Shown piece by piece: positions 78-62,877 of a stretch of DNA of 64,000 bases. A program made the translations under genes and the position numbers. Below the pieces are notes generated by a model, which saw only the letters and a program-made list of their open reading frames with translations, ran no database searches and was not told where the DNA came from. Location of the stretch: contig CACLNZ010000004.1 of the NCBI GenBank assembly GCA_902608415.1, forward strand, positions 2,394 through 66,393, read 5' to 3'. This DNA is from an uncultured PS1 clade bacterium. GTDB taxonomy: Bacteria > Pseudomonadota > Alphaproteobacteria > MED-G09. Position 1 is the stretch's first letter; every line of letters begins with the position of its first letter.

Positions 78-2540
78 ATGAAAAAAGTAAAATACCTATT
101 TATAGGCTTTTCGTTCATGATTTTATCTTTGACTACCATTTCTTCCTATGCTCAAGAAACAGAAAATAATGTAAATACTGGTATTGAAGAAATAATAGTG
201 ACTGCTAGACAACAGGCTGAGAGCTTACAAGATGTTCCTGTTACTGTTTCAGTAATGTCGGAGATGGACCTTGATCGTTATAATATAACAAGCTTAACAG
301 ATGCCGCAAAAATGGTTCCAAATTTTAGAATTAATCCTGGAGGCTCAGGAAACGGTTCTAATATTTATTTAAGAGGAATTGGTTCAAGCTCAATATCTGC
401 AGCGTTTGATCAATCAGTTGCGATTAATATTGACGGTGTAGTAGTTAATAGAGGTCGCTTTATTCACAATGCCTATCTTGATATGTCCCAGATTGAAGTT
501 CTTAAAGGACCGCAATCACTTTACTTCGGTAAGTCTGCAACTGCAGGTGTGATATCTATCAAAACAAATGATCCTACTGATGAGTTTGAAGCTGAGTTTG
601 GTGTTGGCGTTGAAACTGAACATGAAACAACTTTTTTTGAAGGCGTTATATCTGGACCCATAAGTGATAATTTGCTTGCCAGATTTGCATTTGGTACAAG
701 CGAAACAGATGAACTACGCGAAAATTATTCATTCGGAAACGATCCTATGCCTTACGGTAATGGAACAAAACCTTACTTTGGTGAAGAATCTACGAATGCA
801 AGATTGACTCTTTTATGGACACCAACTGAAAATTTAACAGCAAAACTAAAGTATCAATATTCAAAATATGAAAATGATGGTGGCGGAACAATGTATCAAG
901 AAGAATGGTGCGCTGATGGACTCGGCAATCCTCTTGCTCATCAAACAACTGGAGTTCCTGGTGCTACTGCAGCTTTTACTACTAGGCTTGGTGTTGATGA
1001 TTGTGTAATAAATGGCAATACCTCTAAAATTAATTTGGAGCCAGGATTAAGAGCTGGTCTTCCTTATGGTTTTGATAATGGTGAACCAGGCTTAGATCAG
1101 GAAACTGATATGATTTCTCTTCAAGTTGACTGGAATATTAATGATAATTTAAACTTAACATCCATCACTAGTATTGTTGAATTAGATCATGTTGAATTAG
1201 ATGATTATAGTTATGGTGCGGGTGTTTATGGGGGTTTACATAGAAATGTTTATGAACATACATCACAAGAATTTAGACTAGTCAGTGATTATGATGGAGC
1301 ATTTAATTTCCAGGCAGGTGTATTTGTTCAGGAGATTGAGCAAAGATTTGATGCTCATCAATATGCTTTTAACCTTCCAATTACTCCAAATATATTTGGT
1401 CCAGCTTTAGCGTTTTTTGGTGCTTTTGATCCAACATCTCCTCTTGTAGGACCGGACCCAGCTACTGGAAATATGTATGACTATAATAAAGATCATTATC
1501 TTGATACTGATGTAAGGTCAGCTAGTCTTGCTATTTATGTTGATGTTAATGAAAGAACTGAATTATCATTTGGCGCGAGATATACTGAAGAAGAAAAGAC
1601 AGGATATATAAAAATTCCTTATATCCATGCTGCTGCTGCAGCCTTTGGTTTTGGTGCCCCTCCTTTAATTGAAGGTTTAGAATTTGAGGATGATAATCTA
1701 TCGCCTGAAGTTGCTATAAATTACTATATCAATGAAGATACAAGTATTTATGTTGCTTATAAAAAGGCGTTTAAATCTGGTGGAATAGATAACAGCGCTT
1801 TACCAACAGCATCTATTAATCCTTTATCGCCTACTTTCGAAGGCTTTGATGCATTGATTTATGATTCTGAAGAAGTAGATGGTTTTGAAATTGGTTTAAA
1901 ATCTAATCTTCTTGATAATAATATGAGATTAAATGCAACATATTATAAGTATGAATATACTAATCTTCAGGTTCAACTTTTCGATGCGGCAATTATCCAG
2001 TTCAGTACTTTTAATGCAGGTGCAGTTGAAACTGAGGGATTTGAAGCAGATTTACTTTGGTATACAGATATACCTGGACTATCTTTAAGAGGACAATTTG
2101 CTTGGACAGATGCTACTAACACTGGTGATTTTGTAACTCCTGGCGGAGAAAACCTTAAAGGTAGCAAGAGATCATATAGCCCTGAAATAGCTGGATCCTT
2201 TGGATTAAGTTATGACTCTGGACTATCAAATGGTTGGAGATATAATATTTCGACTGACGCAAGATACAGTGATGAATACGGTTGGGGGACTTATATAGAT
2301 TCACCAATGCAGGATTCTTTTTGGATTAATGATGCTGCATTAAGCCTATACTCCGAAGATGGTAAACATTCGTTTAATCTTATTGGAAGAAATCTCGGTG
2401 ATGAAATTGTAATTATTACAGGTGGAGCAATACCTGGAAGAATTTCAACGCAATCAGGTTCATCGGCCCTTATTCAAGACCAAGCGTTAACAACAGGGCA
2501 AGGTAGAACTCTCACATTACAATATAAATATAAAATGTAA
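78..2540 (+). CDS. TonB-dependent outer-membrane receptor (substrate unknown)
   Basis: ORF 66..2540. Signal peptide (KYLFIGFSFMILSLTTISSYA), TonB-box/plug region 'EEIIVTARQQAESLQDVPVTVSVM' and 'IEVLKGPQSLYFGKSATAGVI', then a long beta-barrel-type sequence. ATG at 78 lies 5-6 nt after a GGGGA Shine-Dalgarno, so it is preferred over TTG at 66. Confidence 0.9.
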   Translation: MKKVKYLFIGFSFMILSLTTISSYAQETENNVNTGIEEIIVTARQQAESLQDVPVTVSVMSEMDLDRYNITSLTDAAKMVPNFRINPGGSGNGSNIYLRGIGSSSISAAFDQSVAINIDGVVVNRGRFIHNAYLDMSQIEVLKGPQSLYFGKSATAGVISIKTNDPTDEFEAEFGVGVETEHETTFFEGVISGPISDNLLARFAFGTSETDELRENYSFGNDPMPYGNGTKPYFGEESTNARLTLLWTPTENLTAKLKYQYSKYENDGGGTMYQEEWCADGLGNPLAHQTTGVPGATAAFTTRLGVDDCVINGNTSKINLEPGLRAGLPYGFDNGEPGLDQETDMISLQVDWNINDNLNLTSITSIVELDHVELDDYSYGAGVYGGLHRNVYEHTSQEFRLVSDYDGAFNFQAGVFVQEIEQRFDAHQYAFNLPITPNIFGPALAFFGAFDPTSPLVGPDPATGNMYDYNKDHYLDTDVRSASLAIYVDVNERTELSFGARYTEEEKTGYIKIPYIHAAAAAFGFGAPPLIEGLEFEDDNLSPEVAINYYINEDTSIYVAYKKAFKSGGIDNSALPTASINPLSPTFEGFDALIYDSEEVDGFEIGLKSNLLDNNMRLNATYYKYEYTNLQVQLFDAAIIQFSTFNAGAVETEGFEADLLWYTDIPGLSLRGQFAWTDATNTGDFVTPGGENLKGSKRSYSPEIAGSFGLSYDSGLSNGWRYNISTDARYSDEYGWGTYIDSPMQDSFWINDAALSLYSEDGKHSFNLIGRNLGDEIVIITGGAIPGRISTQSGSSALIQDQALTTGQGRTLTLQYKYKM

Positions 2541-2561
2541 TTAAGAAATAAATAGTTATAG

Positions 2562-2592
2562 AAAAGGGCCATAAATTATGGCCCTTTTTTTT
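2562..2592 (+). terminator. Rho-independent terminator after the receptor gene
   Basis: GGGCCATA (2566-2573) pairs with TATGGCCC (2577-2584): 8-bp stem, 3-nt loop. Preceded by AAAA and followed by T8 (2585-2592). Confidence 0.85.
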
Positions 2593-2704
2593 AAAGAACA
2601 CGAAATAATTAATTTATAATTAAAAAGGTCATTTTTAAATAGCCTTTTTTTATACCTTTGTTAATAATATATCATATAAACTAAAACTGAACTGGAGCCT
2701 TACT

Positions 2705-3220
2705 ATGGAAGAAATGTCTCAAAATCCTGATGAAGAAACACTAGAATATGTTTTTAACCAAACTATGCTTCGGATAAAAGACCCTGAAAAATCAATTAAT
2801 TTCTACACTACAATCCTTGGTATGACTATTTTAAAAAAATTAGACTTCCCAGATTTTAAATTCTCTTTATATTTTCTTGCCTACCTTAGAGATGAAGATG
2901 ATCCTGTTCCTGAAAATAACCAGGATAGATTTGCTTATACTTTAAGCCAAAAGGCTGTTTTAGAATTAACTCATAACTGGGGAACAGAAAATGATGAAAA
3001 CTTTTCTCATCATGATGGCAATTCTGATCCTAGAGGATTTGGCCATATTGGTATAACTGTCCCAGATGTTTATGAGGCATGCGAAAGATTTGAATCGCTT
3101 GGAGTAGAGTTCCAAAAAAAACCAGATGATGGAAATATGAAAGGACTTGCCTTTATAAAAGATCCTGATGGATATTGGATAGAAATTCTCTCGGCTAAGG
3201 GTTTGGCTAGCACAATCTAG
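2705..3220 (+). CDS. gloA: Lactoylglutathione lyase (glyoxalase I), long eukaryote-like form
   Basis: 171 aa. '[18 protein letters not shown]', '[10 protein letters not shown]', '[25 protein letters not shown]' and '[17 protein letters not shown]' are near-colinear with the human GLO1 sequence as I remember it. Confidence 0.9.
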
Positions 3221-4134
3221 TCATTTAAATTACTAGATTTAAAATCATTAATAAGAGAAACAATCTCTTCAGTTCTAGAATTTATGATATTATGACCGCC
3301 TTCAAACGAAAATGTTTTAGCGTCAGGAACTAATTCAATTGCTTTTAGTATTGAGTCTATCGGGACATCTTCGTCATCTGGAGCATAAGTAATGTGAACT
3401 GGGATTTCATAATCATTGATTAATTGATAATCATTATAAAAATTATGCTTTGTGAAGTTTTTCATAAGAGAGCTAAATGAATATTGAGTTCCTTTAACAT
3501 TAAATTGCTCGATAAAATGATCTGGGTCTTGGCTATCATCAGTTAAACCATATCCTCTTTTCACTAACCTATTAATAATAAAAAACCTCAAATAGAAATC
3601 CCAAAAAATTGGGATAGATGCAAAGTTTTCTAACCCAATTGTCTGTAACCCAACAAAAGGTACATTTAAAATTAAGGCTTTAACTTTAGCAGGGTTTTTA
3701 GCTGCATAATTAGATGCTAAAGCGCCTCCCATAGACACCCCCATTAAAGTAAAATTATCTAACGATAAATGATTAATAAAATCATTTAGTTGGTTTTGAT
3801 AAGTATGCATATTATATTTTATTTTTGGCCTATCAGAATAACCTCTTCCGAAATGATCATAAACATAAACCTTATAGCCAATTTCAGATAAGCTTGTGGC
3901 AATCTTTTTATAATAATGCGAAGGAACAGTAACTCCGTGAATAAGAATTAAAGGTTCATTAATATCCTCACCAATTGAATAATAAGCAGTTTTACCATGG
4001 CTATTATTAAAAAAAGAATATTCACTATCTATTTCCAAATCACTTATATCAATTGTTTCTCTATTTCCAGAAACATAAACAAAAAAGAATATTAGAAATA
4101 ATATGAAAAAAATATATATAAACCAATTGACCAT
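3217..4134 (-). CDS. Alpha/beta-fold hydrolase with N-terminal membrane anchor
   Basis: 305 aa. N-terminal hydrophobic segment, 'LILIHGV' oxyanion region, 'GVSMGG' nucleophile elbow (G-x-S-x-G), and a C-terminal 'GGHN' His region. Confidence 0.75.
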
Positions 4135-4175
4135 AACTTTTCTCTAAACAATTATAACATAAGGAGGATAATAAT

Positions 4176-4952
4176 ATGCCAATTTTAGAATTATTTAATT
4201 TAAAAGATGATGTAGCTGTTGTAACGGGTGCCGGCAAAGGTATAGGAAAAGGAATTGCAATTGCTTTAGCTGAAGCTGGGTCAAATGTTGTCCTTGCCTC
4301 CAGAACAGAAAAGGACCTTAGCGAAGTACAAAAGGAAATTAAGAAATTAGGAAGAGAGGCAATAGTAGTGCCGATAGATGTTACAAACCCAAATTCTTTT
4401 GAAGACTTAAGTGAAAAAGCCCTTAAAGAGTTTGGTAAAATAAGTACATGGGTAAATAACGCTGGAGGTTTACCGGATGGAACTCCACGCTATCTTACTA
4501 AGACTTCTTTTGAGGAGTTTGAGGCACAAATAAACCTTAACTTCACTGCTGTTTTTAATGGCTGTATTACTGCGGCCATGAAAATGCAGGAGGGAGGTGC
4601 AATAATTAATATTTCTTCTAGTTCATCAAAAAATATGCAAGGAAATATAAAAAACGGCCCATATGGCGCCTCGAAAGCTGCTGTCAACAGTTTGACAGCA
4701 ACTCTTGCATTGGAGTTAGCCCCTAAAATTAGGGTTAATGCTATTGCGCCAGGTCCAATACCAACAGAAAACTTTAAGGATTCAATGAACATGCATACAG
4801 AAGAAAGAGAGAAAGAATTAAAGAAATATATTCCTATTCCGCTCAATAGATGGGGGTCTCCTGAAGATATAGGTGCGGCAGTAGTCTTTATGGCATCAAA
4901 TGCGTCAAGCTGGGTGACTGGACAATGTCTTTTTGTTGATGGCGGCACTTAA
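4176..4952 (+). CDS. Short-chain dehydrogenase/reductase (SDR)
   Basis: 'VTGAGKGIGKGIA' dinucleotide motif, 'NNAG', catalytic 'YGASKAA' (Y-x3-K). GGAGGA Shine-Dalgarno upstream. Confidence 0.85.
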   Translation: MPILELFNLKDDVAVVTGAGKGIGKGIAIALAEAGSNVVLASRTEKDLSEVQKEIKKLGREAIVVPIDVTNPNSFEDLSEKALKEFGKISTWVNNAGGLPDGTPRYLTKTSFEEFEAQINLNFTAVFNGCITAAMKMQEGGAIINISSSSSKNMQGNIKNGPYGASKAAVNSLTATLALELAPKIRVNAIAPGPIPTENFKDSMNMHTEEREKELKKYIPIPLNRWGSPEDIGAAVVFMASNASSWVTGQCLFVDGGT

Positions 4953-6331
4953 AAGTCTAAGGGGATTTCAATCAATATAATCAAGCCTGAAGGCTTAGCA
5001 TTTATTAATTTTAAAGTGCCTCCATGAAATTTAACAGCTGAACTAACAAGATTTAAACCCAATCCAGAACCTTTTAAACTTCTACTAGTATCAAGTCTCA
5101 CAAATCTCGCTAATACTCTATCTTTATCAGCATCTCTAATTCCAATACCATTATCGCTTACCCATAAAGATAAAAGGTTTTCATTTTGTTTTGCTCCAAC
5201 ATTTATAGCTGGGTTATTATTTGAACAACCATAGTTAATAGCGTTTTCAATTAAATTGGCTAAAGCCTGAGAGAGTAAATTATAATTACCATTGATAATA
5301 ATATCTTCATTAACTTCGTAATTTAATTTAATCCCATCTGACTCAGCAATAGGCTCATATAACTCATGCATATTTAAAATTAATTCTTTTAGGCTTACTG
5401 GATTTCTGTCTAAATCTGATGTACCTGATTCAACTTTTGATATAGACAAAATGGAATTAAAAGTTTTAATCAAATTGTCAGTTTCTACAAGAGCATCTTC
5501 AAATGATTTCTTATATTGATCTATATCTGGGTTTGACATTAATGTGACCTCTAAATTTGTTCTAATTCTGTTTAGAGGAGTTCTTAAATCATGGGCAACA
5601 TTATCAGAGACCTCCTTCATATTGGTCATTAGAGAATCTAATCTATCTAACATTTCATTTAAATTAGATGATAATTGATTTAATTCATCTTTACCTTTTG
5701 TTGTTGGTAAACGCTCTTTTAAATTACCATCCATGATTTTTTTACTTGTTTTATTTATATCTGAAATTCTTTTTAGAAAATTTCTACTTAGGATATAACC
5801 TCCAAAGATTCCAAGAAAAATAATAATTAGAATTGACCATAAAGAGCTATAAAGAAACCTCTCTTTCAGAATCTTTTCATCATTTACTACCCTGCCAACA
5901 ATTAATCTTAAATTCCTACGTGGAGTTATAAAATTTCTTCCTCTACCATAATGGATCTTTTCAACTCCATTTTCATTTACTTGATATGCAAACTCTATCC
6001 ATCCATCATCATTAACTTTAACATCATTAGGCTCAGATTTTATATTACCTGCTATATAGTTATTTTGAGAGTCATAAAGCCTATAAATATCAAGTGTTGC
6101 TCTAGATGTTTCGCTTCTTATATAATTTAAAAGACCTTGCTCTCTGTATCTTAAATAAATATTATTTAAATCTTCTACTTTCTCTATTATTTTTTGATCC
6201 GCTTCTAACTCAATATCTCTTGCTGTTGTGTAATATAAAAACATCAAAACAAGACCAATCGACAATCCTAAAAGCATCGTATAGGTAAAAATTAGTCTAA
6301 AACTAGCTAAATTAAATGGATTATTCATCAT
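4949..6331 (-). CDS. Sensor histidine kinase (2 TM, HAMP, HisKA, HATPase_c)
   Basis: H-box 'AHDLRTPLNRI', N-box 'NLIENAINY', G-boxes 'DNGIGI' and 'GSGLGLNLV'. Two TM segments flank a periplasmic region of about 130 aa. Overlaps the upstream response regulator by 11 nt. Confidence 0.9.
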   Translation of the reverse strand: MMNNPFNLASFRLIFTYTMLLGLSIGLVLMFLYYTTARDIELEADQKIIEKVEDLNNIYLRYREQGLLNYIRSETSRATLDIYRLYDSQNNYIAGNIKSEPNDVKVNDDGWIEFAYQVNENGVEKIHYGRGRNFITPRRNLRLIVGRVVNDEKILKERFLYSSLWSILIIIFLGIFGGYILSRNFLKRISDINKTSKKIMDGNLKERLPTTKGKDELNQLSSNLNEMLDRLDSLMTNMKEVSDNVAHDLRTPLNRIRTNLEVTLMSNPDIDQYKKSFEDALVETDNLIKTFNSILSISKVESGTSDLDRNPVSLKELILNMHELYEPIAESDGIKLNYEVNEDIIINGNYNLLSQALANLIENAINYGCSNNNPAINVGAKQNENLLSLWVSDNGIGIRDADKDRVLARFVRLDTSRSLKGSGLGLNLVSSAVKFHGGTLKLINAKPSGLIILIEIPLDF

Positions 6332-7001
6332 ACCTTAAAGCATATCCAGCACCGCGTTCTGTAAAGAGCATTTGCTTTCCTTTAAAAGGTTTATCTATTT
6401 TTGAGCGTAATCTAGATATATGAACATCAATAACATTTGTTTGAGGATCAAAATGATATTCCCAAACACCTTCTAAAAGCATAGTTCTTGTAACAACTTG
6501 ATTAGGCCTTCTAAGTAAAAACTCCAAGAGTTTGTATTCTCTAGGCTGTAGATCGATAATTTGCCCCTCCCTTTCAACTCTACGACTTAATAAATCAAGT
6601 TTTAAATCACCTAATTCAAGCAAACTGTTGTTATTATCATGTTGATTTCTTCTAATTACAGCATCTAGACGTGCTAATAATTCTGAAAAGGAAAAAGGTT
6701 TAGCCAAATAGTCATCTGCACCATATTTAAGGCCCTTTACACGCTCATCTACTTCACCTAAGGCCGAAAGAATTATTATTGGTATATCTAAATTTTTTTC
6801 TCTAATTTTAGTAATTAAAGTTAAACCATCTAATTCTGGAAGCATCCTATCAACAATCAATGCATCAAAGTTTGAGTCAAAAACCATAAACAGGCCTTCT
6901 TTTCCGTCACTAGCCCTATCTACTACATGACCGCTTTCTTTGAGGCCCTTCGTTAAATAAGATGCAGTCTCATTATCGTCTTCTACAAGCAATATATGCA
7001 T
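6321..7001 (-). CDS. OmpR/PhoB-family response regulator
   Basis: Receiver domain ('ILLVEDD', 'DALIVDRMLP', 'DYLAKPF') plus winged-helix output ('LTERGAGYALR'). Confidence 0.9.
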   Translation of the reverse strand: MHILLVEDDNETASYLTKGLKESGHVVDRASDGKEGLFMVFDSNFDALIVDRMLPELDGLTLITKIREKNLDIPIIILSALGEVDERVKGLKYGADDYLAKPFSFSELLARLDAVIRRNQHDNNNSLLELGDLKLDLLSRRVEREGQIIDLQPREYKLLEFLLRRPNQVVTRTMLLEGVWEYHFDPQTNVIDVHISRLRSKIDKPFKGKQMLFTERGAGYALRYDE

Positions 7002-49333: not shown

Positions 49334-51394
49334 TTAGAATGTTTTCCTTAGTGAAATACGAGCATTCAAAGGCTCACCTACTGATGCTTGGTGAGTACTG
49401 TGAGAATGTGGGAAATAAAGTTCATCTGTCACATTTTCAACATTTAATTGAATACTTAGATCATCAGCTAGGTCATAATATGCTGCAAAATCTACTCTAG
49501 TATAATCAGGAAGTATTAAGCCTGGTTTATCATTTTTAATATTTGACTCACCCTGTGCTGTAACTCCAAAACCTATACCAAAGCGATCATTAACTTCATA
49601 TGTCGCCCATAGAGAAGCCGTATATTCTGGTATTTCTCTTGGTTCGCCGCCTTTAGCTGTCTCGCCATCAAGATCACTATAACCTATAGCTAACGATAGT
49701 TTTTCTGTAACTTGTCCTTTAAGTTCAAGCTCAATACCATCAACTTGTAGACCAACAATCTCAGAATTTTCTCCTGTATCGCTGTCGCGAGTAGCTACTG
49801 TTTGCTCACTATCGAAGTAACTAGCAGTAAAGCTTAATCCAGGTCTGATATCCCACTTTACTCCAATTTCAGTGCTTTCATACACATCTGGATCTAATCT
49901 AGCAGCGTTTGCGTCAAGTTTTTTGAACTGCTCACCAGATCGTGGAAGAAAGCTTTCAGCATAACTTACATAAAGAGATACATTTTCTTGTGGTTTAAAT
50001 ATCAAACCAGCTCTTGGTGAAAATTCTTCGTCCTCTCTAGTCTCAGAAGTTCCTTTTTTAACGTCTTTTACAGTAATATCAAAGTTATCAAATCGACCGC
50101 CTAATAATATCTTAAATTTATCAGTCACATCAATCTGATCTTGAATGTAAATAGAAGTTACTTCAATATCTGACTCAGTTTTACTTTTTAGATCTGCGGT
50201 AAAGTCGTTATAAGTTCTGACACCAGCCGCATTTACTCCAAAGTTTATTGGTCTAGTGATATTGAATACTTCATTATCATCTTCTGTAGTGATAAAGAAT
50301 GTGTTGTAACGATAGTTTTCATTTTCAGTATCAATAATTTCAGCTCCAACTAATAGAGTATGTTTTACTGATCCAGTTTGAAATTCATTAACAATGTTAC
50401 CAGAAATTATTAAATTAGTTCTTTCTGTAGGGTCTTTATAACCATCCGCTGTAAATGTGTCTCCACCTGAGTAACCTGATGCGTAATAATTTTTATACAT
50501 TTTTGCAAAATCACTGTACTGAACAACAAGATTACCTTTTCTATTGTCAGAAAACTCATGACTTAAATTTGCGCGATAAATGTCAGCTCTAAGTGTTGTT
50601 AAGTTGGTATCAGTGTCACCAAAAACTATTTCTTCAAAAGCTTCAACTGGTTCTCCATTAAGTGTAGGTACACCACGATCAATAAATCTTTCATGATCAG
50701 CGTGTTCATAAGATAAATCTAATGTTGTTACAGGACTAAGCTCTAGTCTTAAAGTTGGATTAAATCCATAACGATCGCCATCATAATAATCTCTGTGATT
50801 TTCTAAAGTGTCACTATGAAAGTTAATTCTTAAAGCAGATTTTTCACCAGTAGATACATTATAATCCACAGCAAAATCAAATGCTCCAAAAGAGTCAGCG
50901 CCCATATCAAATGAACCAAACTGCTCATCTAAGACAGCTTTTTTAGTTACTCTGTTAATGATACCACCTGTACCACCACGCCCAAATAAAAGAGCATTGG
51001 GTCCTCTTAGAATTTCAACTTGCTCTAGGTTATATAATGAACGGTAATACTGAACATCATCCCTTACGCCATCAAGATAAAAATCTGCAGTAGACCTTAC
51101 ACCTCTAAAGACGATAGAATCACGGTGACCTTCACCTTGAGATGTATTAACACCTGGAGTATAGCGAACGATATCACCAAGCTCTCTAAAACCTTGTTTA
51201 CGAATTTCATCATCCGTAACAATTGATAGAGTTTGTGGAACATCAATAATCGGAACAGGTGTTTTTAGTGCAGTAACCTGATCTGAATAAAGTACTTTAC
51301 CCTTAACAACAATTTCTTCTACATCCTGTGAAAATGAAGAAGTATTTGATGCAATTAGAGCAAAAGCAAAAGTACATAAAAATAATTTTTTCAT
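49334..51394 (-). CDS. TonB-dependent siderophore-type receptor
   Basis: Signal peptide, 'EEIVVKGK' TonB box, 'VPQTLSIVTDDEIRKQG', 'VEILRGPNALLFGRGGTGGIINRVTKK', terminal '...LRKTF'. ATG 51394 follows GGGGAGA; the track start at 51409 is a TTG. Confidence 0.9.
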   Translation of the reverse strand: MKKLFLCTFAFALIASNTSSFSQDVEEIVVKGKVLYSDQVTALKTPVPIIDVPQTLSIVTDDEIRKQGFRELGDIVRYTPGVNTSQGEGHRDSIVFRGVRSTADFYLDGVRDDVQYYRSLYNLEQVEILRGPNALLFGRGGTGGIINRVTKKAVLDEQFGSFDMGADSFGAFDFAVDYNVSTGEKSALRINFHSDTLENHRDYYDGDRYGFNPTLRLELSPVTTLDLSYEHADHERFIDRGVPTLNGEPVEAFEEIVFGDTDTNLTTLRADIYRANLSHEFSDNRKGNLVVQYSDFAKMYKNYYASGYSGGDTFTADGYKDPTERTNLIISGNIVNEFQTGSVKHTLLVGAEIIDTENENYRYNTFFITTEDDNEVFNITRPINFGVNAAGVRTYNDFTADLKSKTESDIEVTSIYIQDQIDVTDKFKILLGGRFDNFDITVKDVKKGTSETREDEEFSPRAGLIFKPQENVSLYVSYAESFLPRSGEQFKKLDANAARLDPDVYESTEIGVKWDIRPGLSFTASYFDSEQTVATRDSDTGENSEIVGLQVDGIELELKGQVTEKLSLAIGYSDLDGETAKGGEPREIPEYTASLWATYEVNDRFGIGFGVTAQGESNIKNDKPGLILPDYTRVDFAAYYDLADDLSIQLNVENVTDELYFPHSHSTHQASVGEPLNARISLRKTF

Positions 51395-54178: not shown

Positions 54179-55081
54179 ATGGCTAAAAATAAAAAAATAA
54201 GCAATTTACCTGTGTTATCTGGAGATGTAACTCTAAGCAATTATCTTAATGAAATAAAAAAATTTCCTATGTTAAGTGCTGAAGAGGAATACACCCTAGC
54301 AACTCGACTTAGTATTCATGGTGATACTGATGCAGCTCATAAGCTTGTAACAAGTCATTTACGATTAGTCGCAAAACTAGCCATGGGGTACAAGGGTTAT
54401 GGCCTACCAATTACAGATATTATGTCTGAAGGAAATGTTGGACTTATGCAAGCTGTTCAGAAGTTTGATCCTGAAAAAGGTTTTAGATTAGCGACATATG
54501 CTCTCTGGTGGGTAAAGGCAGCAATGCAAGAATATATTCTTAGATCATGGTCTTTAGTAAAAATAGGAACTACAGCTGTTCAAAAAAAATTATTCTTTAA
54601 TTTAAGAAAAGCAAAGAACCAAATTCAAGCGTATGAAGATGGAGATTTAAATCCTGAAAACTTAGAAAAGATTTCTAAACGATTAAATGTCCCAGAAAAA
54701 GAAGTTGTTAATATGAATAGGAGGTTATCTGGTGCAGATCCATCGCTTAATGCAAAGATTTCATCAGATGATGGTTCTCAAACTGAGTGGCAAGATTGGA
54801 TAGAAGCTGATTCGCCTAATCAGGAAGAGGAATATGCTGAAAAAGAGGAAGATAGCATTAGAAAAGATCTAATATCTGAATCATTAAATGTGCTTAATGA
54901 AAGAGAGCTAGATATTGTTCAAACAAGACGTCTTAGTGAAGAGACAACAACTTTAGAAGAGTTAAGTGAAAAATATGACATTAGCAGAGAAAGAGTAAGA
55001 CAAATAGAAGTTAGAGCTTTAGAGAAAATAAAAGAAGAAATACAAAAACTAATGAAAAATAAAAATATTATTGATATCTAG
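54179..55081 (+). CDS. rpoH: RNA polymerase sigma-32 (heat-shock sigma factor)
   Basis: 'HLRLVAKLAMGYKGYGLPITDIMSEGNVGLMQAVQKFDP', RpoH box 'QKKLFFNLRKAK', region 4 'ISRERVRQIE'. Confidence 0.92.
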   Translation: MAKNKKISNLPVLSGDVTLSNYLNEIKKFPMLSAEEEYTLATRLSIHGDTDAAHKLVTSHLRLVAKLAMGYKGYGLPITDIMSEGNVGLMQAVQKFDPEKGFRLATYALWWVKAAMQEYILRSWSLVKIGTTAVQKKLFFNLRKAKNQIQAYEDGDLNPENLEKISKRLNVPEKEVVNMNRRLSGADPSLNAKISSDDGSQTEWQDWIEADSPNQEEEYAEKEEDSIRKDLISESLNVLNERELDIVQTRRLSEETTTLEELSEKYDISRERVRQIEVRALEKIKEEIQKLMKNKNIIDI

Positions 55082-55803
55082 TCTTGATAATTAATTTCCG
55101 TCCAAAGTTCCTTCATAATCATTATTAAATCATCAATCATTTCATTTCTTTCTATTAAACCAATAGAATATCTATCAAAATCATGGAAACCATTACCAGC
55201 ATATTCCCAATCAATAATTTTATAACAATTATCAGTAACTAAAATATTTGCTTCTAGGTCATGATGGGTTAACAAAGCGGGCCAATTTGATTTTTGAAAA
55301 TTACTCAGATTAACCAAGAAGGCTTCCATTTTATTTTCTCTTGAGTCACTTATATAGTTGATTTCTTTAATTTTTTTCCAATATAAGCTGATATGATTCA
55401 AGTAGTTAAATTTTGGTAAATCTATTTTTATATCCTGATATGACTCTATTAAACTTAATAATTTATTTCTGTCTTCAGTATCAGTCTTCCTGAGATCTAA
55501 TTCAATTCCTTCAATATATTCATAAATTATAAATTCATATGAATCGTCGATATAGACTAAATTAGGAATGATATTTTTTTTATCTAAAGACTGTAAAATT
55601 AATGACTCATTTTTCCTATTGATTCCTAAATTCAAAGAATTTTTATTATTTAATCTTAAAACTAATTTGAATTTTTTAAAATCAAGTAAATAACTATCAT
55701 TTGTCTTACCATTTATAAGATAGGAGATATCTGCATCATCAATATTAAAATCTAAATCGCTTACATTTTCTAATAAAAATTTAATTTTGTGATTTGTATT
55801 CAT
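55078..55803 (-). CDS. Thiamine-kinase-like protein (APH/choline-kinase fold)
   Basis: 'LTHHDLEANILVTDNCYKIIDWEYAGNG' parallels E. coli ThiK 'H.D....N......LIDWEYAGDGD'. Last gene of the TPP-riboswitch operon. ATG 55803 is preferred over 55833. Confidence 0.6.
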   Translation of the reverse strand: MNTNHKIKFLLENVSDLDFNIDDADISYLINGKTNDSYLLDFKKFKLVLRLNNKNSLNLGINRKNESLILQSLDKKNIIPNLVYIDDSYEFIIYEYIEGIELDLRKTDTEDRNKLLSLIESYQDIKIDLPKFNYLNHISLYWKKIKEINYISDSRENKMEAFLVNLSNFQKSNWPALLTHHDLEANILVTDNCYKIIDWEYAGNGFHDFDRYSIGLIERNEMIDDLIMIMKELWTEINYQD

Positions 55804-56350
55804 AATAGCTCTTTCGCCATTGATAATATCCATAAACAGACATTACCTGGTATGTCATTAATAAAATCACAGTAAGATATAACTCTCTATCAAAATTAAG
55901 AAAAATTGCTATTGAATTTATAATTATCCAGAATATCCAATTTGAAAGTATTTTTTGAGCAACCATAAATGTAGTAACAACTGATGCCCATGTAGTAAAA
56001 GAATCTAAATATGGATATACAGCATCAGTTTTCTGAAGAGAAAAACCAGAAATGATAGTCAAAATTATAATCATTAATATTACTATAATATGATTTTGGT
56101 ATGACCACGAAATAACATAATTTTTATCTATTTGAGATTTTTTATTCCAATTAATCCAACCGTATATAGCCATTAAAAGATAATAGAAATTAAGTAACGA
56201 TTCCATATAAAGTGAAACATCCCAATATATTAATATATAAATTAATGTGCTTATAAAAGCCGCATACCAACAAGCAATGTGTTGTTTCATAGCTAAAAAT
56301 AAATAAAGAAGGGCAAAAATTACTGCAAAAATTTCTAAAGCTATAAACAT
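55781..56350 (-). CDS. PnuC-family transporter (PnuT-like candidate thiamine/vitamin permease)
   Basis: 189 aa, about 7 TM. The 'YGWINWNKK' and 'YGYYQWRK' W-motifs are typical of PnuC. Confidence 0.8.
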   Translation of the reverse strand: MFIALEIFAVIFALLYLFLAMKQHIACWYAAFISTLIYILIYWDVSLYMESLLNFYYLLMAIYGWINWNKKSQIDKNYVISWSYQNHIIVILMIIILTIISGFSLQKTDAVYPYLDSFTTWASVVTTFMVAQKILSNWIFWIIINSIAIFLNFDRELYLTVILLMTYQVMSVYGYYQWRKSYYEYKSQN

Positions 56351-56354
56351 CTTA

Positions 56355-58526
56355 CTAGAATTTTCTTTTTCCGTTTACTCCAATAACTCTTGGAGAACCG
56401 TATTGAAAATATGGTTCTGTAGCATAAAATTTTCTTGGATCATTACCAAAGCTTCCGAACCCTCTAGTTTGATAATCTTCGTCACTTAAATTTTTACCAA
56501 ATAAATTAAATTCCCAAGACTCTTTTTGATATCCTAATAATAAATTAAACAATACATAATCATCTGATTGAATATTATGACGATCAGAAAAATAAAACTC
56601 ATCTTTTGCTTCAATATCAAACTTAATAAATAAATTATCTGTTATTTTGTAATTTAAACCTAAGCTTAATTGATACCGAGGAGCATGAGACTGCTCTCTT
56701 CCATTTAAATTAATTGGAATTCCATTTTCAAGATCTGAGTCAACATGTGAAAAACTTAAGTAATTATTAAACTCAGTTTCTAATAATCCTAAATTGAAGA
56801 ATAGATCTATTTTATTATTTATTAACCAGATTAATTCCATTTCTAAACCATAATTTGATCCTTTTACAGCATTACCGATATAATCAGTGAAGCTACATGG
56901 GCATAACCCACCTTGCTCGTCAGAATTAATTGATGTCACTATACTTTGTTTTGTTTGGACATCCTCGCGATCTTGATAAAATATAGAAGTTTGAAATAGA
57001 AAATTTTTATTTAAATTTCCTTTAAAACCTATTTCATAATTAATCATTGTTTCTGAATCATATTCTAAATTTTCATTACTTACATTTCCTTCAATATTAA
57101 TCCCACCTGACTTATAGCCTTGTGAAATAAGGAAATAACTGAGCAAATTATCGTTAATTTGATTTTTAAAAACTATTTTTCCTCCCCAAAAATCTTCGGA
57201 ATTATTATACTCATTATTAAATAAGCAACTTTCAGGTTTTGGGTAAATTGCTATACAGAAAAATCCATCTGGGGCAGGACCATTATTGTCAATATAATCA
57301 GCATTCCTTGATTCAATTCTTAAGCCAACTTCAATATCGATAGTTTCTGAGAATGGATATTTATATTGCCCATATAAGGCTATATTTTCAGTATCAAATG
57401 AACTTTTAAAATTATTTTCTAAATATGTATATTCCCTGACTAAGTTTATTTTTTGATTTCTATAATATAACCCTAAAACCCAGTCATTATTACCTTTTGA
57501 TAATAATCTAGTATCTAAAGTGAAGTTCTCATTATTTCTAATATAATTATCAAAAGATGAATACCACCAATCAAAACCAAATACTTTTGAATCGCAGGAT
57601 GTTTGATCGCATATTCCTTCATTACTCCAATCTTCATCATAGCCATATTCAAGATCTGAATCTGCAAAGCTCAATAAAACTTCCACATTTATTTTAGTAA
57701 ACTCTTTTAAATATTTAAGAGAACCAGAAAATGTCTCTTGACGGTCATGTCCAGGCTCATCCGAAAGAGTTATTCTAGTGTTGTCCAAACTAAACGCGTC
57801 ATAACCATTATCAACATCAGAATATATTAAGTTAACCTCTAATAATTGATCATCAGAATCCATATAGATTTTAAAACGCGAAACAAACTCATCAATATTA
57901 TTTGTTTTATCTGTTTGTAAGTGTTGATTTTTTATAAAACCATTACTCTCGTACTTTTTGACACCAAATCTAAATCCAGAGTTTTCATTTAATGGCCCAG
58001 TAAAGACAAAACCTAAGCTTCTACCATTAAATTCTGATAATGATCCTAAAATTTCAGAATGAAATACTTCTTCTGGTTTTTTCGAAACTATATTTACTAA
58101 ACCAGCTAGAGCATTGGCTCCATAAATTGTTCCTTGAGGACCTTTCAAAACTTCTATTTGCTCAATATCAAAAGTACTTGCAGCTAATGATATACCTGTA
58201 AAGTCAATTCCATCTATAATAACTCCTACAGAATAATTTACAGGTTCAGTAAACTCGCTTCTCTCTCCAATTCCACGAATTTGTAAAAATTTACCTCTAG
58301 ATGATCCTGTTGAATAATTAATATTAGGTATTACAAATAAGATGTCTTCAATGTGTTGTGCATCTCTATTCTTAATAACCTCTTCATCAATAACTGATGC
58401 ACTTAAAGGCAGTTTATATAAAGAATTGTCTTTAAGCTCTGCAGTTACAACAATTTCATCAATTATTTCATCAGCATACAAAGATGTCGCATTGAATAAA
58501 AAAAAGATAATTAAAAAAAATTTCAT
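56355..58526 (-). CDS. TonB-dependent receptor under TPP-riboswitch control
   Basis: Signal peptide 'MKFFLIIFFLFNATSLYA', TonB box 'DEIVVTA', 'IEVLKGPQGTIYGANALAGLVNIVSKK', terminal '...GKRKF'. ATG 58526 follows GGAGGA; the track start at 58550 is a TTG. Confidence 0.9.
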   Translation of the reverse strand: MKFFLIIFFLFNATSLYADEIIDEIVVTAELKDNSLYKLPLSASVIDEEVIKNRDAQHIEDILFVIPNINYSTGSSRGKFLQIRGIGERSEFTEPVNYSVGVIIDGIDFTGISLAASTFDIEQIEVLKGPQGTIYGANALAGLVNIVSKKPEEVFHSEILGSLSEFNGRSLGFVFTGPLNENSGFRFGVKKYESNGFIKNQHLQTDKTNNIDEFVSRFKIYMDSDDQLLEVNLIYSDVDNGYDAFSLDNTRITLSDEPGHDRQETFSGSLKYLKEFTKINVEVLLSFADSDLEYGYDEDWSNEGICDQTSCDSKVFGFDWWYSSFDNYIRNNENFTLDTRLLSKGNNDWVLGLYYRNQKINLVREYTYLENNFKSSFDTENIALYGQYKYPFSETIDIEVGLRIESRNADYIDNNGPAPDGFFCIAIYPKPESCLFNNEYNNSEDFWGGKIVFKNQINDNLLSYFLISQGYKSGGINIEGNVSNENLEYDSETMINYEIGFKGNLNKNFLFQTSIFYQDREDVQTKQSIVTSINSDEQGGLCPCSFTDYIGNAVKGSNYGLEMELIWLINNKIDLFFNLGLLETEFNNYLSFSHVDSDLENGIPINLNGREQSHAPRYQLSLGLNYKITDNLFIKFDIEAKDEFYFSDRHNIQSDDYVLFNLLLGYQKESWEFNLFGKNLSDEDYQTRGFGSFGNDPRKFYATEPYFQYGSPRVIGVNGKRKF

Positions 58527-58582
58527 TGGTTCCTCCAAATAAATATTCAATCTAAATAGAGATCCAAATTAATAGGCGTTTA

Positions 58583-58676
58583 TAAGAATCCAATTCCTAC
58601 GCCGGCATTAACCGGATCAGGTTCAAAGGGTCAGGTTTATTCCTTCTCAGCCAAATGGCACCCCTCGGACATCAAT
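58583..58676 (-). promoter_or_regulatory. TPP (THI-box) riboswitch
   Basis: Minus-strand sequence is GUCCGAGGGGUGCCAUUUGGCUGAGAAGGAAUAAACCUGACCCUUUGAACCUGAUCCGGUUAAUGCCGGCGUAGGAAUUGG. It contains the invariant GGGGUGC, CUGAGA, ACCC, AACCUGAUC.GG.UAAUGCC.GCGUAGG blocks. Confidence 0.9.
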
Positions 58677-58708
58677 ATTATTATAATGGTTTGATCTGAA
58701 ATTCAATA

Positions 58709-61605: not shown

Positions 61606-62767
61606 TTTTATCTCCAGTTTTATTTACCAATTTTTGATGTGCCCAATCGATCCAAGGTAATAATCTTAAAATATCCTCAGACTCAACTGTTGCTCCTGCC
61701 CATATTCTTAAACCAGGTGGAGCGCTTCTATGATTAACAATATCAAATGCAACTTCCTCATCAACTAATATTTTACCAATAGATTTAGCAAAACTTCTTT
61801 GGTCATCTTCACTAAGCTCAGATAATTCATTAGAAAATTTCAAACATACAGATGTATTAGATAAATTTGCATCATCATCACATAGAAAAGTTAACCAATC
61901 GCTTTGGTCTACCCAATCTTTAATAATTGAAAAATTTTTATCGGCTCTTTCAATAGTTCCTTTGTATCCACCTATGCTATCTACCCACTTAAGTACATCT
62001 AAATAATCTTCAACACATAACATTGATGGTGTATTTAATGTTTCACCTCTAAAAACACCTTCAATTAATTTCTGATCTTTTGTTAGCCTAAATATTTTCG
62101 GAATTGGCCACTCAGGAGTATAACTTTCAAGAAGGTTTACAGCTTTTGGGCTTAAAATTAGAATACCATGCGCAGCTTCACCTCCTAAAACTTTTTGCCA
62201 GCTGAATGTTGTTGCATCCAGTTTAGACCAATCCAAGTCTTGTGCAAAAACAGCAGATGTTGCATCACATAAAGTTACGCCATGTCTATTATCAGGAATC
62301 CAATCAGCATTCGGTACTCTTGCTCCAGATGTAGTTCCGTTCCAAGTAAAAATGACATCATTATCAAAATTAATATTTTCTAAATCAGGCAATAAACCAA
62401 ATTCAACATCATGATAAATAGATCCTGATATTTTTAGTTGTTCTTGAACATCCTTTTTCCAGTCTTTTCCAAAAACTTCCCAAGACAACACTTCAACAGG
62501 CCTTGAACCAAGAAGATTCCACATGGCCATTTCAATTGCTCCAGTATCAGAAGCAGGAACAATACCTACCTTATAACTCTCAGGAATGGATAATAATCTT
62601 TTAGTTTCATCAATCGCAGTGCTAAGTTTTAACTTCCCTTCTGAGGATCGATGACTTCTTCCTAATAATGCATTTTTTAAGACTTCTACTGACCATCCAG
62701 GTCTCTTTGTACATGGACCAGAAGAAAAATTTAAGCATACAGGCTTATTTTTCGGTTTTTCTATCAT
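61598..62767 (-). CDS. serC: Phosphoserine aminotransferase (long alphaproteobacterial/actinobacterial type)
   Basis: 389 aa. 'NFSSGPC', 'GRSHRS', PLP-Lys region 'FSWQKVLGGE'. 8-nt overlap with serA. Confidence 0.88.
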   Translation of the reverse strand: MIEKPKNKPVCLNFSSGPCTKRPGWSVEVLKNALLGRSHRSSEGKLKLSTAIDETKRLLSIPESYKVGIVPASDTGAIEMAMWNLLGSRPVEVLSWEVFGKDWKKDVQEQLKISGSIYHDVEFGLLPDLENINFDNDVIFTWNGTTSGARVPNADWIPDNRHGVTLCDATSAVFAQDLDWSKLDATTFSWQKVLGGEAAHGILILSPKAVNLLESYTPEWPIPKIFRLTKDQKLIEGVFRGETLNTPSMLCVEDYLDVLKWVDSIGGYKGTIERADKNFSIIKDWVDQSDWLTFLCDDDANLSNTSVCLKFSNELSELSEDDQRSFAKSIGKILVDEEVAFDIVNHRSAPPGLRIWAGATVESEDILRLLPWIDWAHQKLVNKTGDKNA

Positions 62768-62790
62768 TTGTCTACCCTTACAGATAGTTG

Positions 62791-62808
62791 CTCCTCGTTG
62801 GGGAGGAG
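62791..62808 (-). promoter_or_regulatory. Short GC-rich hairpin in the serC 5' leader (possible serC-type leader element)
   Basis: On the mRNA strand, CUCCUC-CCCAAC-GAGGAG lies about 25 nt upstream of the serC ATG. It stands out in an AT-rich spacer. Confidence 0.3.
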
Positions 62809-62877
62809 TGTCCCAAGAGTGAGATATAACTAATAATAATATTAGTCAATGATATTTTAAAACAAAAGAATAATTTA

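Follow-up and report, generated by a model that had tools for sequence, protein, structure and literature searches.

A TPP-riboswitch operon for a TonB-dependent receptor, a Pnu-family permease and a ThiK-like kinase as a probable thiamine scavenging system of an OCS116/PS1 marine alphaproteobacterium

We analysed 64,000 nucleotides (nt) of contig CACLNZ010000004.1 (positions 2,394 to 66,393, forward strand), referred to below as the window, from the genome of an uncultured PS1 clade bacterium (assembly GCA_902608415.1). The minus strand of the window carries an operon of three open reading frames (ORFs) that is headed by a thiamine pyrophosphate (TPP) riboswitch and encodes, in order, a TonB-dependent receptor, a Pnu-family permease and a kinase. 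A sequence-only reading of this DNA had described the locus as a riboswitch-controlled route for thiamine salvage from the outer to the inner membrane, and the riboswitch, the three gene families and the conservation of the whole unit uphold that description. The features of the locus, in window coordinates, are as follows.

58680-58706, minus strand: candidate sigma-70 promoter, with -35 box TTGAAT (58706-58701), a 15-nt spacer and -10 box TATAAT (58685-58680)
58576-58675, minus strand: TPP riboswitch aptamer (THI element), Rfam RF00059, located with Infernal
58527-58575, minus strand: expression platform, with the Shine-Dalgarno (SD) sequence GGAGGA at 58536-58531 and the receptor ATG at 58526
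56355-58526, minus strand: TonB-dependent receptor of 723 amino acids, putative thiamine receptor; Plug domain PF07715, 67.8 bits
55781-56350, minus strand: Pnu-family facilitator of 189 amino acids, putative PnuT; PF04973, 164 bits (cut-off 27.3)
55078-55803, minus strand: kinase of the APH/choline-kinase fold, 241 amino acids, putative thiamine kinase; the longest ORF begins at 55833

The operon is compact. Receptor and permease are separated by 4 nt, and permease and kinase overlap by 23 nt when the kinase is read from the start that is conserved among relatives, the second ATG at 55803. Upstream lies purA, the stop codon of which is 2 nt from the -35 box and the end of which is only 33 nt from the aptamer. 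Downstream, rpoH is convergent, and its stop codon overlaps that of the kinase by 4 nt (55078-55081), so terminators cannot fit between the two transcription units. The order purA, riboswitch, receptor, permease, kinase and convergent rpoH is kept in 13 of 13 relative loci that were fetched, which come from two genera. Across these loci the kinase diverges fastest (37-94% identity, compared with 59-95% for the receptor and 62-98% for the permease). A third genus, g3 (genomes G013 and G015), keeps the riboswitch, the receptor and the permease, with rpoH next; an operon kinase gene before rpoH was not found in its loci L042 (G013, 1494-4399) and L043 (G015, 3766-6671).

Variable presence of the operon within the genus was considered and rejected, since the contigs of G008 and G004 break exactly at purA and rpoH, respectively: purA lies 58 nt from the contig end in G008, and rpoH is truncated at the contig end in G004. 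Contigs of relatives break at the edges of the operon in several cases (G008:C7:59-1351, G004:C44:3-728, G002:C80 and G021:C27), and a possible cause is micro-diversity of the population in this rapidly evolving stretch from receptor to kinase. In the closest relative (locus L024 of G003, 2198-4409), the receptor gene is split by two frameshifts into three overlapping ORFs with 94-97% identity per piece. The split gene is either an assembly error in a metagenome-assembled genome (MAG) or a pseudogene.

An Infernal scan of the whole window with RF00059 matched the leader at 76.3 bits against a gathering score of 54.3 (E-value 2.9e-13), over the full length of the model (positions 1-105 of 105). 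The THI-box that had been proposed at 58583-58676 is confirmed by this match, with its boundaries now at 58576-58675. It is the single TPP riboswitch found in the 1.12-Mb, 51-contig, 83%-complete assembly, and the other genomes of the family have at most one each, at the receptor operon. All 15 family loci in which the region is assembled carry the riboswitch, as do 10 distant loci. The aptamer core is almost invariant in the 15 relatives, with a few compensatory changes in P3. Judged by its sequence, the leader would be a TPP-responsive repressor element.

The promoter boxes TTGAAT and TATAAT with their 15-nt spacer, the GGAGGA motif and the receptor ATG all lie where the sequence-only reading had placed them. 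In 15 aligned leaders from three genera, the TTG of the -35 box and the T.TA of the -10 box form invariant columns at a fixed spacing. A generic promoter scan showed no enrichment against the AT-rich background (21 sites observed, 27.9 expected), so it is conservation that argues for the promoter. The aptamer ends 50 nt before the receptor start. No terminator-like hairpin with a U-tract was found in the leader, and in all three genera the SD is predicted to lie inside local helices that have pyrimidine-rich partners and differ in sequence. These two observations favour translational repression, and control is probably exerted through sequestration of the SD. Such repression would also act on transcripts that read through from purA. 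RNAalifold, applied to 15 leaders, returned the aptamer helices only and did not recover a conserved platform helix.

The receptor is the first gene behind the TPP riboswitch in all 15 riboswitch-bearing family loci and in the 10 more distant loci. The window protein has a signal peptide, a TonB box (DEIVVTA) and a C-terminal Phe; the barrel domain PF00593 was not detected in it and is recorded for orthologues at 92% identity. The receptor family is very large, with homologues at about 50% identity in many gammaproteobacteria, and these are labelled generically or as iron receptors; in public sources the label 'iron complex outermembrane receptor' is found for receptor homologues. The genome encodes one TonB and 19 Plug-domain receptors (in the window, for example, at 224-550, 50960-51250 and 58101-58418). 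For a streamlined alphaproteobacterium of 1.1 Mb this is an unusually dense set.

The second gene had been taken for a seven-transmembrane (7-TM) PnuC-family protein, and its PF04973 score of 164 bits and its alignment to the 7-TM core of PnuC (4QTN) agree with that view. The TM6 motif WIFWIIIN (residues 138-145) fits the pattern WxxW(x)3[D/N], and both gate tryptophans are found, one in WINW (65-68) and the other in YQWRK near the C-terminus; the pattern and the gate tryptophans (after TM3 and TM7) are those defined in PMC5749112. At loci carrying all three genes, the permease is always located between receptor and kinase, downstream of a TPP riboswitch. It is from this invariable context, and not from the sequence of the permease, that we infer a specificity for thiamine and the name PnuT. 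The labelling of the permease as PnuC and of the receptor as an iron receptor is likely to be systematic misannotation.

Among curated NCBIfam models, the kinase is best matched by ThiK (TIGR02721; 76.4 bits, E-value 1.9e-21), with GntI second. All family members tested likewise have ThiK as their highest-scoring curated model, and distant members of the clade score 100-115 bits. The motif HHDLEANILV...IDWEYAG aligns with HMDVHAGNLV...IDWEYAGDG of Escherichia coli ThiK, and alignment of a 14-orthologue profile to E. coli ThiK using hhalign gave a probability of 94.8%, with approximately 25% identity over 163 aligned columns. The catalytic residues K46, E66, H181-D182...N186 (HHDL..N) and D198 (IDWE) are invariant. 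In Pfam, the kinase matches Choline_kinase (PF01633) at 30.4 bits (cut-off 29) and APH (PF01636) at 21 bits (below the cut-off of 23.2). This choline-kinase label does not discriminate, because E. coli ThiK itself matches APH and, weakly, Choline_kinase, and a Vibrio protein at the thiK position passes both models.

The single kinase sequence had no match in the PDB, and a kinase profile was closest to pneumococcal LicA and other choline kinases. A ThiK structure was not found in the PDB, and E. coli ThiK used as a query matches no structure there, so the PDB does not discriminate between ThiK and choline kinases. An AlphaFold model of the kinase (predicted local distance difference test score 72, with values under 50 in the catalytic loop, residues 175-213) was used for the fold alone. 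Its top Foldseek matches are LicA, choline kinases and APH(2''), with TM-scores of 0.5-0.6.

A maximum-likelihood tree of 50 kinases, in which E. coli ThiK and the genome's own APH paralogues have long branches, places the window kinase in a 21-member clade of PnuT- and receptor-linked kinases with support of 95/89. This clade unites the OCS116/PS1 kinases with those of Cellvibrionales-type gammaproteobacterial and Flavobacteriales loci that carry the trio of genes. The nearest named outlier is the Vibrio protein, which is a positional ThiK orthologue by its hinT-ycfL-lpoB-thiK-ycfP-ndh neighbourhood. With this outlier and with ThiK as the best curated model, no grouping with choline or aminoglycoside kinases in preference to ThiK was seen, and the backbone of the tree does not decide between ThiK and choline kinase. 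On the tree, it is a member of a distinct, PnuT-linked clade of ThiK-like kinases and is not ThiK. Its context suggests that the substrate is thiamine and the product thiamine monophosphate (TMP).

The module extends well beyond the family. Kinases 30-38% identical to the one in the window are encoded in Cellvibrionaceae, Agarilytica, a Pseudomonadales MAG, Halioxenophilus aromaticivorans KU68F, Alteromonadaceae bacterium Bs31 and a Flavobacteriales MAG. In every case the genes ahead of the kinase encode homologues of the receptor (37-46% identity) and of the permease (45-51%). A TPP riboswitch precedes the receptor in 10 of the 10 distant loci with an intact upstream region, comprising two metagenomic contigs (L053 and L055) and eight genome loci. 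On these two contigs, one of them from a Flavobacteriales MAG and both the only distant loci with gene calls, a small YkoF-like ORF (about 83 amino acids; PF07615, 23-30 bits) lies between receptor and permease (L053 4921-5169; L055 5112-5366). The other gammaproteobacterial and Flavobacteriales loci have a gap of 70-440 nt at this position, and the ORF is absent from the OCS116/PS1 version, in which the gap is 4 nt. In Arcobacter and Aliarcobacter (L084, L093, L099, L121 and L127) the permease-kinase pair stands alone, without a receptor, and its kinases form a well-supported clade of their own. No TPP riboswitch was detected at gathering score in these pair loci.

The thiamine pathway inventory restricts what the operon could usefully import. 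Searches of this genome (83% complete) recovered no ThiC, ThiE, ThiD, ThiG, TPK or ThiB. ThiE, ThiD and TPK were likewise not found in 15 family genomes, seven of which are at least 90% complete, and the TPK model TIGR01378 has no match here or in 24 relatives. ThiL scores above its cut-off in 22 of the 24 family relatives. The g3 genus has ThiL, and ThiE, ThiD and TPK were not found in it. Four genes with the Transket_pyr domain of TPP-dependent enzymes are present in the genome, indicating that TPP is needed. With ThiD and ThiE not found, hydroxymethylpyrimidine (HMP) and thiazole cannot be used, and ThiL kept without ThiE makes sense only if a thiamine kinase supplies TMP. On this reasoning the ligand would have to be intact thiamine, or a compound that is converted to thiamine outside the cytoplasm.

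These results bear directly on the suggestion, raised in the sequence-only reading, that the ligand might be HMP or a degradation product. In that case the operon would import a precursor or breakdown product in a SAR11-like manner (HMP, aminomethylpyrimidine (AmMP), formylaminomethylpyrimidine (FAMP) or the thiazole moiety), and the kinase would phosphorylate it. The name of the YkoF family refers to thiamine/HMP binding, and the presence of a YkoF-like ORF in some distant modules is consistent with such a role. TPP riboswitches do control precursor transporters elsewhere, for example in SAR11 (as cited in PMC10308909). However, precursors are useless without ThiD and ThiE, neither of which was found in the 15 family genomes, and ThiC and ThiG were also not found in this one. 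ThiL, for which TMP is the only substrate, is retained, and PnuT binds thiamine (PMC5749112). We therefore regard import of a precursor as very improbable, and the suggestion of HMP or a degradation product as ligand is not supported by the inventory.

The comparison with SAR11 is also not supported by the identity of the host, which had been treated as Pelagibacter-like. Relatives from the same genus are labelled OCS116 cluster bacterium AG-430-B22, Rhodobiaceae bacterium and Rhizobiales-LRMED-253, and the sister genus holds more OCS116 single-cell genomes, PS1 clade and MED-G09. NCBI lists the OCS116 cluster under Alphaproteobacteria incertae sedis. Given these labels and the 19 Plug-domain receptors, the host is a streamlined, AT-rich marine alphaproteobacterium that is not Pelagibacter-like.

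We interpret the locus as an operon that is repressed by TPP and serves thiamine scavenging in an obligate thiamine auxotroph, with a probability of roughly 0.8. In the mechanism that we propose, the TonB-dependent receptor would capture external thiamine and move it into the periplasm, powered by TonB, and the PnuT-type facilitator would give thiamine a path for diffusion through the inner membrane. The APH-fold kinase, which is translationally coupled, would then convert thiamine to TMP, thereby trapping it and maintaining the inward gradient, and ThiL, encoded elsewhere, would convert TMP to TPP. When abundant, TPP would bind the leader aptamer and stop expression of the operon, most likely because the ribosome-binding site of the receptor gene becomes inaccessible.

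Several observations weigh against this interpretation. At the most general level, the three protein assignments and the kinase clade all derive from computational comparison, and it is by further steps that we infer which ligand each protein handles, that TMP is the product and that the switch acts at translation. For the switch, folding of the leaders of eight relatives with the aptamer enforced or P1 blocked did not separate ON and OFF states, the SD being mostly paired in both, in calculations whose constraints were not cleanly honoured for every leader sequence.

For the permease, the last residue of the TM6 motif is Asn, which PnuC shares, where Shewanella PnuT has an essential Asp. Asn is found in all OCS116/PS1 members, in Halioxenophilus and in L104, and Asp in the remaining riboswitch-linked homologues. 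The NCBIfam equivalog model for PnuC also names the permease, at 77.8 bits against a cut-off of 42.45. Coupled with the choline kinases that make up both the closest solved structures and the Pfam family of the kinase, these features would fit a permease and kinase that serve another cationic alcohol or vitamin, such as nicotinamide riboside (via PnuC) or choline (via a LicA-like kinase), with the riboswitch controlling the receptor only. We consider this very improbable. The junctions between the three genes are a 4-nt gap and a 23-nt overlap, no internal promoter is needed, and the permease-kinase pair is found behind a TPP riboswitch in every examined lineage that also has the receptor. The choline-kinase label is moreover shared by genuine ThiK, and the PDB holds no ThiK structure to compete with LicA.

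For the kinase, the scores fall below the ThiK cut-offs (76.4 against 299.45 bits for TIGR02721, and 19.8 against 206 for NF007620). The description as ThiK-like stands, borne out by the motif and the top curated model, and identity with ThiK itself, at 76 against 299 bits, does not hold. In the tree, the clades of ThiK, the PnuT-linked kinases, the Arcobacter pair, a second small trio and choline-kinase-like proteins meet in a polytomy. In addition, the g3 genus keeps the riboswitch, receptor, permease and ThiL, yet has no operon kinase, so the kinase is either not indispensable to the unit or can be replaced by another enzyme. A strong ThiK-like candidate was not found in the g3 genus. A NadR-type kinase was considered as a substitute and rejected, since the only matches were weak and fell on a P-loop protein that nearly all family members have.

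Finally, ThiL was not found in this assembly, in which the only 'ThiL' matches are PurL and PurM. The possibility that ThiL has been lost was rejected, as relatives carry the gene and the neighbourhood of ThiL in the two closest relatives maps here only from base 1 of contig C27, about 1.3 kb past ThiL; the neighbourhood thus stops at a contig end, which places ThiL in an assembly gap. The missing ThiL, together with the ThiL of g3, which without an operon kinase may receive TMP from another source, could nevertheless be taken to mean that ThiL is irrelevant and that the kinase makes TPP directly or has a substrate that is not free thiamine, or that TMP or TPP itself is imported. It is, however, established for the chemistry of the APH-fold family that its kinases transfer one phosphate only. 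ThiL is kept in 22 of 24 relatives and its absence here maps to a contig end, and Shewanella PnuT binds neither TMP nor TPP (PMC5749112). A direct route to TPP, or import of a phosphorylated form, is accordingly given very little weight relative to import of free thiamine.

The design of the operon is known from other bacteria. A thiamine uptake operon of the Bacteroidetes type was reportedly predicted by Rodionov and colleagues in 2002. In Bacteroides thetaiotaomicron, thiamine uptake by OMthi and PnuT has been proven genetically (Costliow and Degnan 2017, PMC5613172), and in most gut Bacteroidetes OMthi, pnuT and tnr3 form one operon with a TPP riboswitch (PMC5613172). The locus described here resembles OMthi (BT2390)-pnuT (BT2396)-tnr3 (BT2397) in combining a TPP riboswitch, a TonB receptor, a PnuT-type facilitator and a thiamine-phosphorylating enzyme, a likeness of architecture and not one drawn from the receptor sequences. 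It differs in the trapping enzyme, which in the Bacteroidetes is a TPK/Tnr3 that yields TPP in one step and here is an APH-fold ThiK-like kinase, so that ThiL is needed. Unlike B. thetaiotaomicron, which also synthesises thiamine, the host here would be a thiamine auxotroph. The three-gene arrangement is consequently less noteworthy than had been supposed, being published for Bacteroidetes with a TPK kinase (PMC5613172) and, in its ThiK-like form, widespread in marine gammaproteobacteria.

PnuT works as a facilitator, with a dissociation constant for thiamine of ~12 µM and no binding of either TMP or TPP (Jaehme et al. 2018, PMC5749112), which makes a trapping kinase necessary (PMC5749112). 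The usefulness of a PnuT with micromolar affinity at the picomolar thiamine concentrations of the sea has been questioned (PMC5749112). The permease of the window is similar to Shewanella woodyi PnuT in its 7-TM core, its WxxW(x)3[D/N] motif, its gate tryptophans and an expected facilitated diffusion with metabolic trapping. It differs, by comparison with the published motif, in having Asn at the position where S. woodyi PnuT requires Asp to bind thiamine. The permease here is coupled to a TonB receptor in a predicted auxotroph.

The kinase shares with ThiK (YcfN) of E. coli and Salmonella the APH/choline-kinase fold, the Brenner motif H.D....N and the IDWEYAG motif. Unlike ThiK, which is found in the context hinT-ycfL-lpoB-thiK-nagZ, it lies in a receptor-Pnu operon and belongs to a separate clade. 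The marine gammaproteobacterial loci of H. aromaticivorans KU68F and Alteromonadaceae bacterium Bs31 resemble the present operon in gene order, kinase clade and upstream TPP riboswitch, and differ in that their hosts have larger genomes. We found no paper on a kinase of this type beside pnuT, nor on thiamine acquisition in OCS116/PS1. What is new here is thus an unpublished kinase type and a lineage not yet discussed for vitamin B1.

We somewhat favour the broader view that the PnuT-linked APH-fold kinases represent a thiamine kinase family of their own and are not ThiK orthologues. This family would form one module with the receptor and the facilitator across Alphaproteobacteria, Gammaproteobacteria and Bacteroidota, and would provide the sole visible route to TPP in OCS116/PS1. 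Vitamin B1 is scarce in seawater, and the vitamer that each abundant lineage needs shapes microbial interdependence. The locus and the inventory of 15 related genomes predict that OCS116/PS1 bacteria, which keep ThiL and the uptake operon, need intact thiamine. If the broader view is correct, these bacteria, which are abundant and streamlined, would depend strictly on intact thiamine as consumers, in contrast to SAR11 with its need for HMP, and a TonB receptor could allow a Pnu facilitator of low affinity to function where the surrounding thiamine is picomolar. The locus also provides a putative functional label for three families that annotation pipelines misname 'PnuC', 'iron receptor' and 'phosphotransferase'. 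The presence of the module in the cultured carriers H. aromaticivorans KU68F and Alteromonadaceae bacterium Bs31 makes these proposals testable there.

The window contains a further regulatory RNA on the same strand. A serC leader (RF00517, 66.2 bits), an alphaproteobacterial cis-regulatory RNA, is located at 62767-62818 on the minus strand, approximately 4 kb upstream of the operon.

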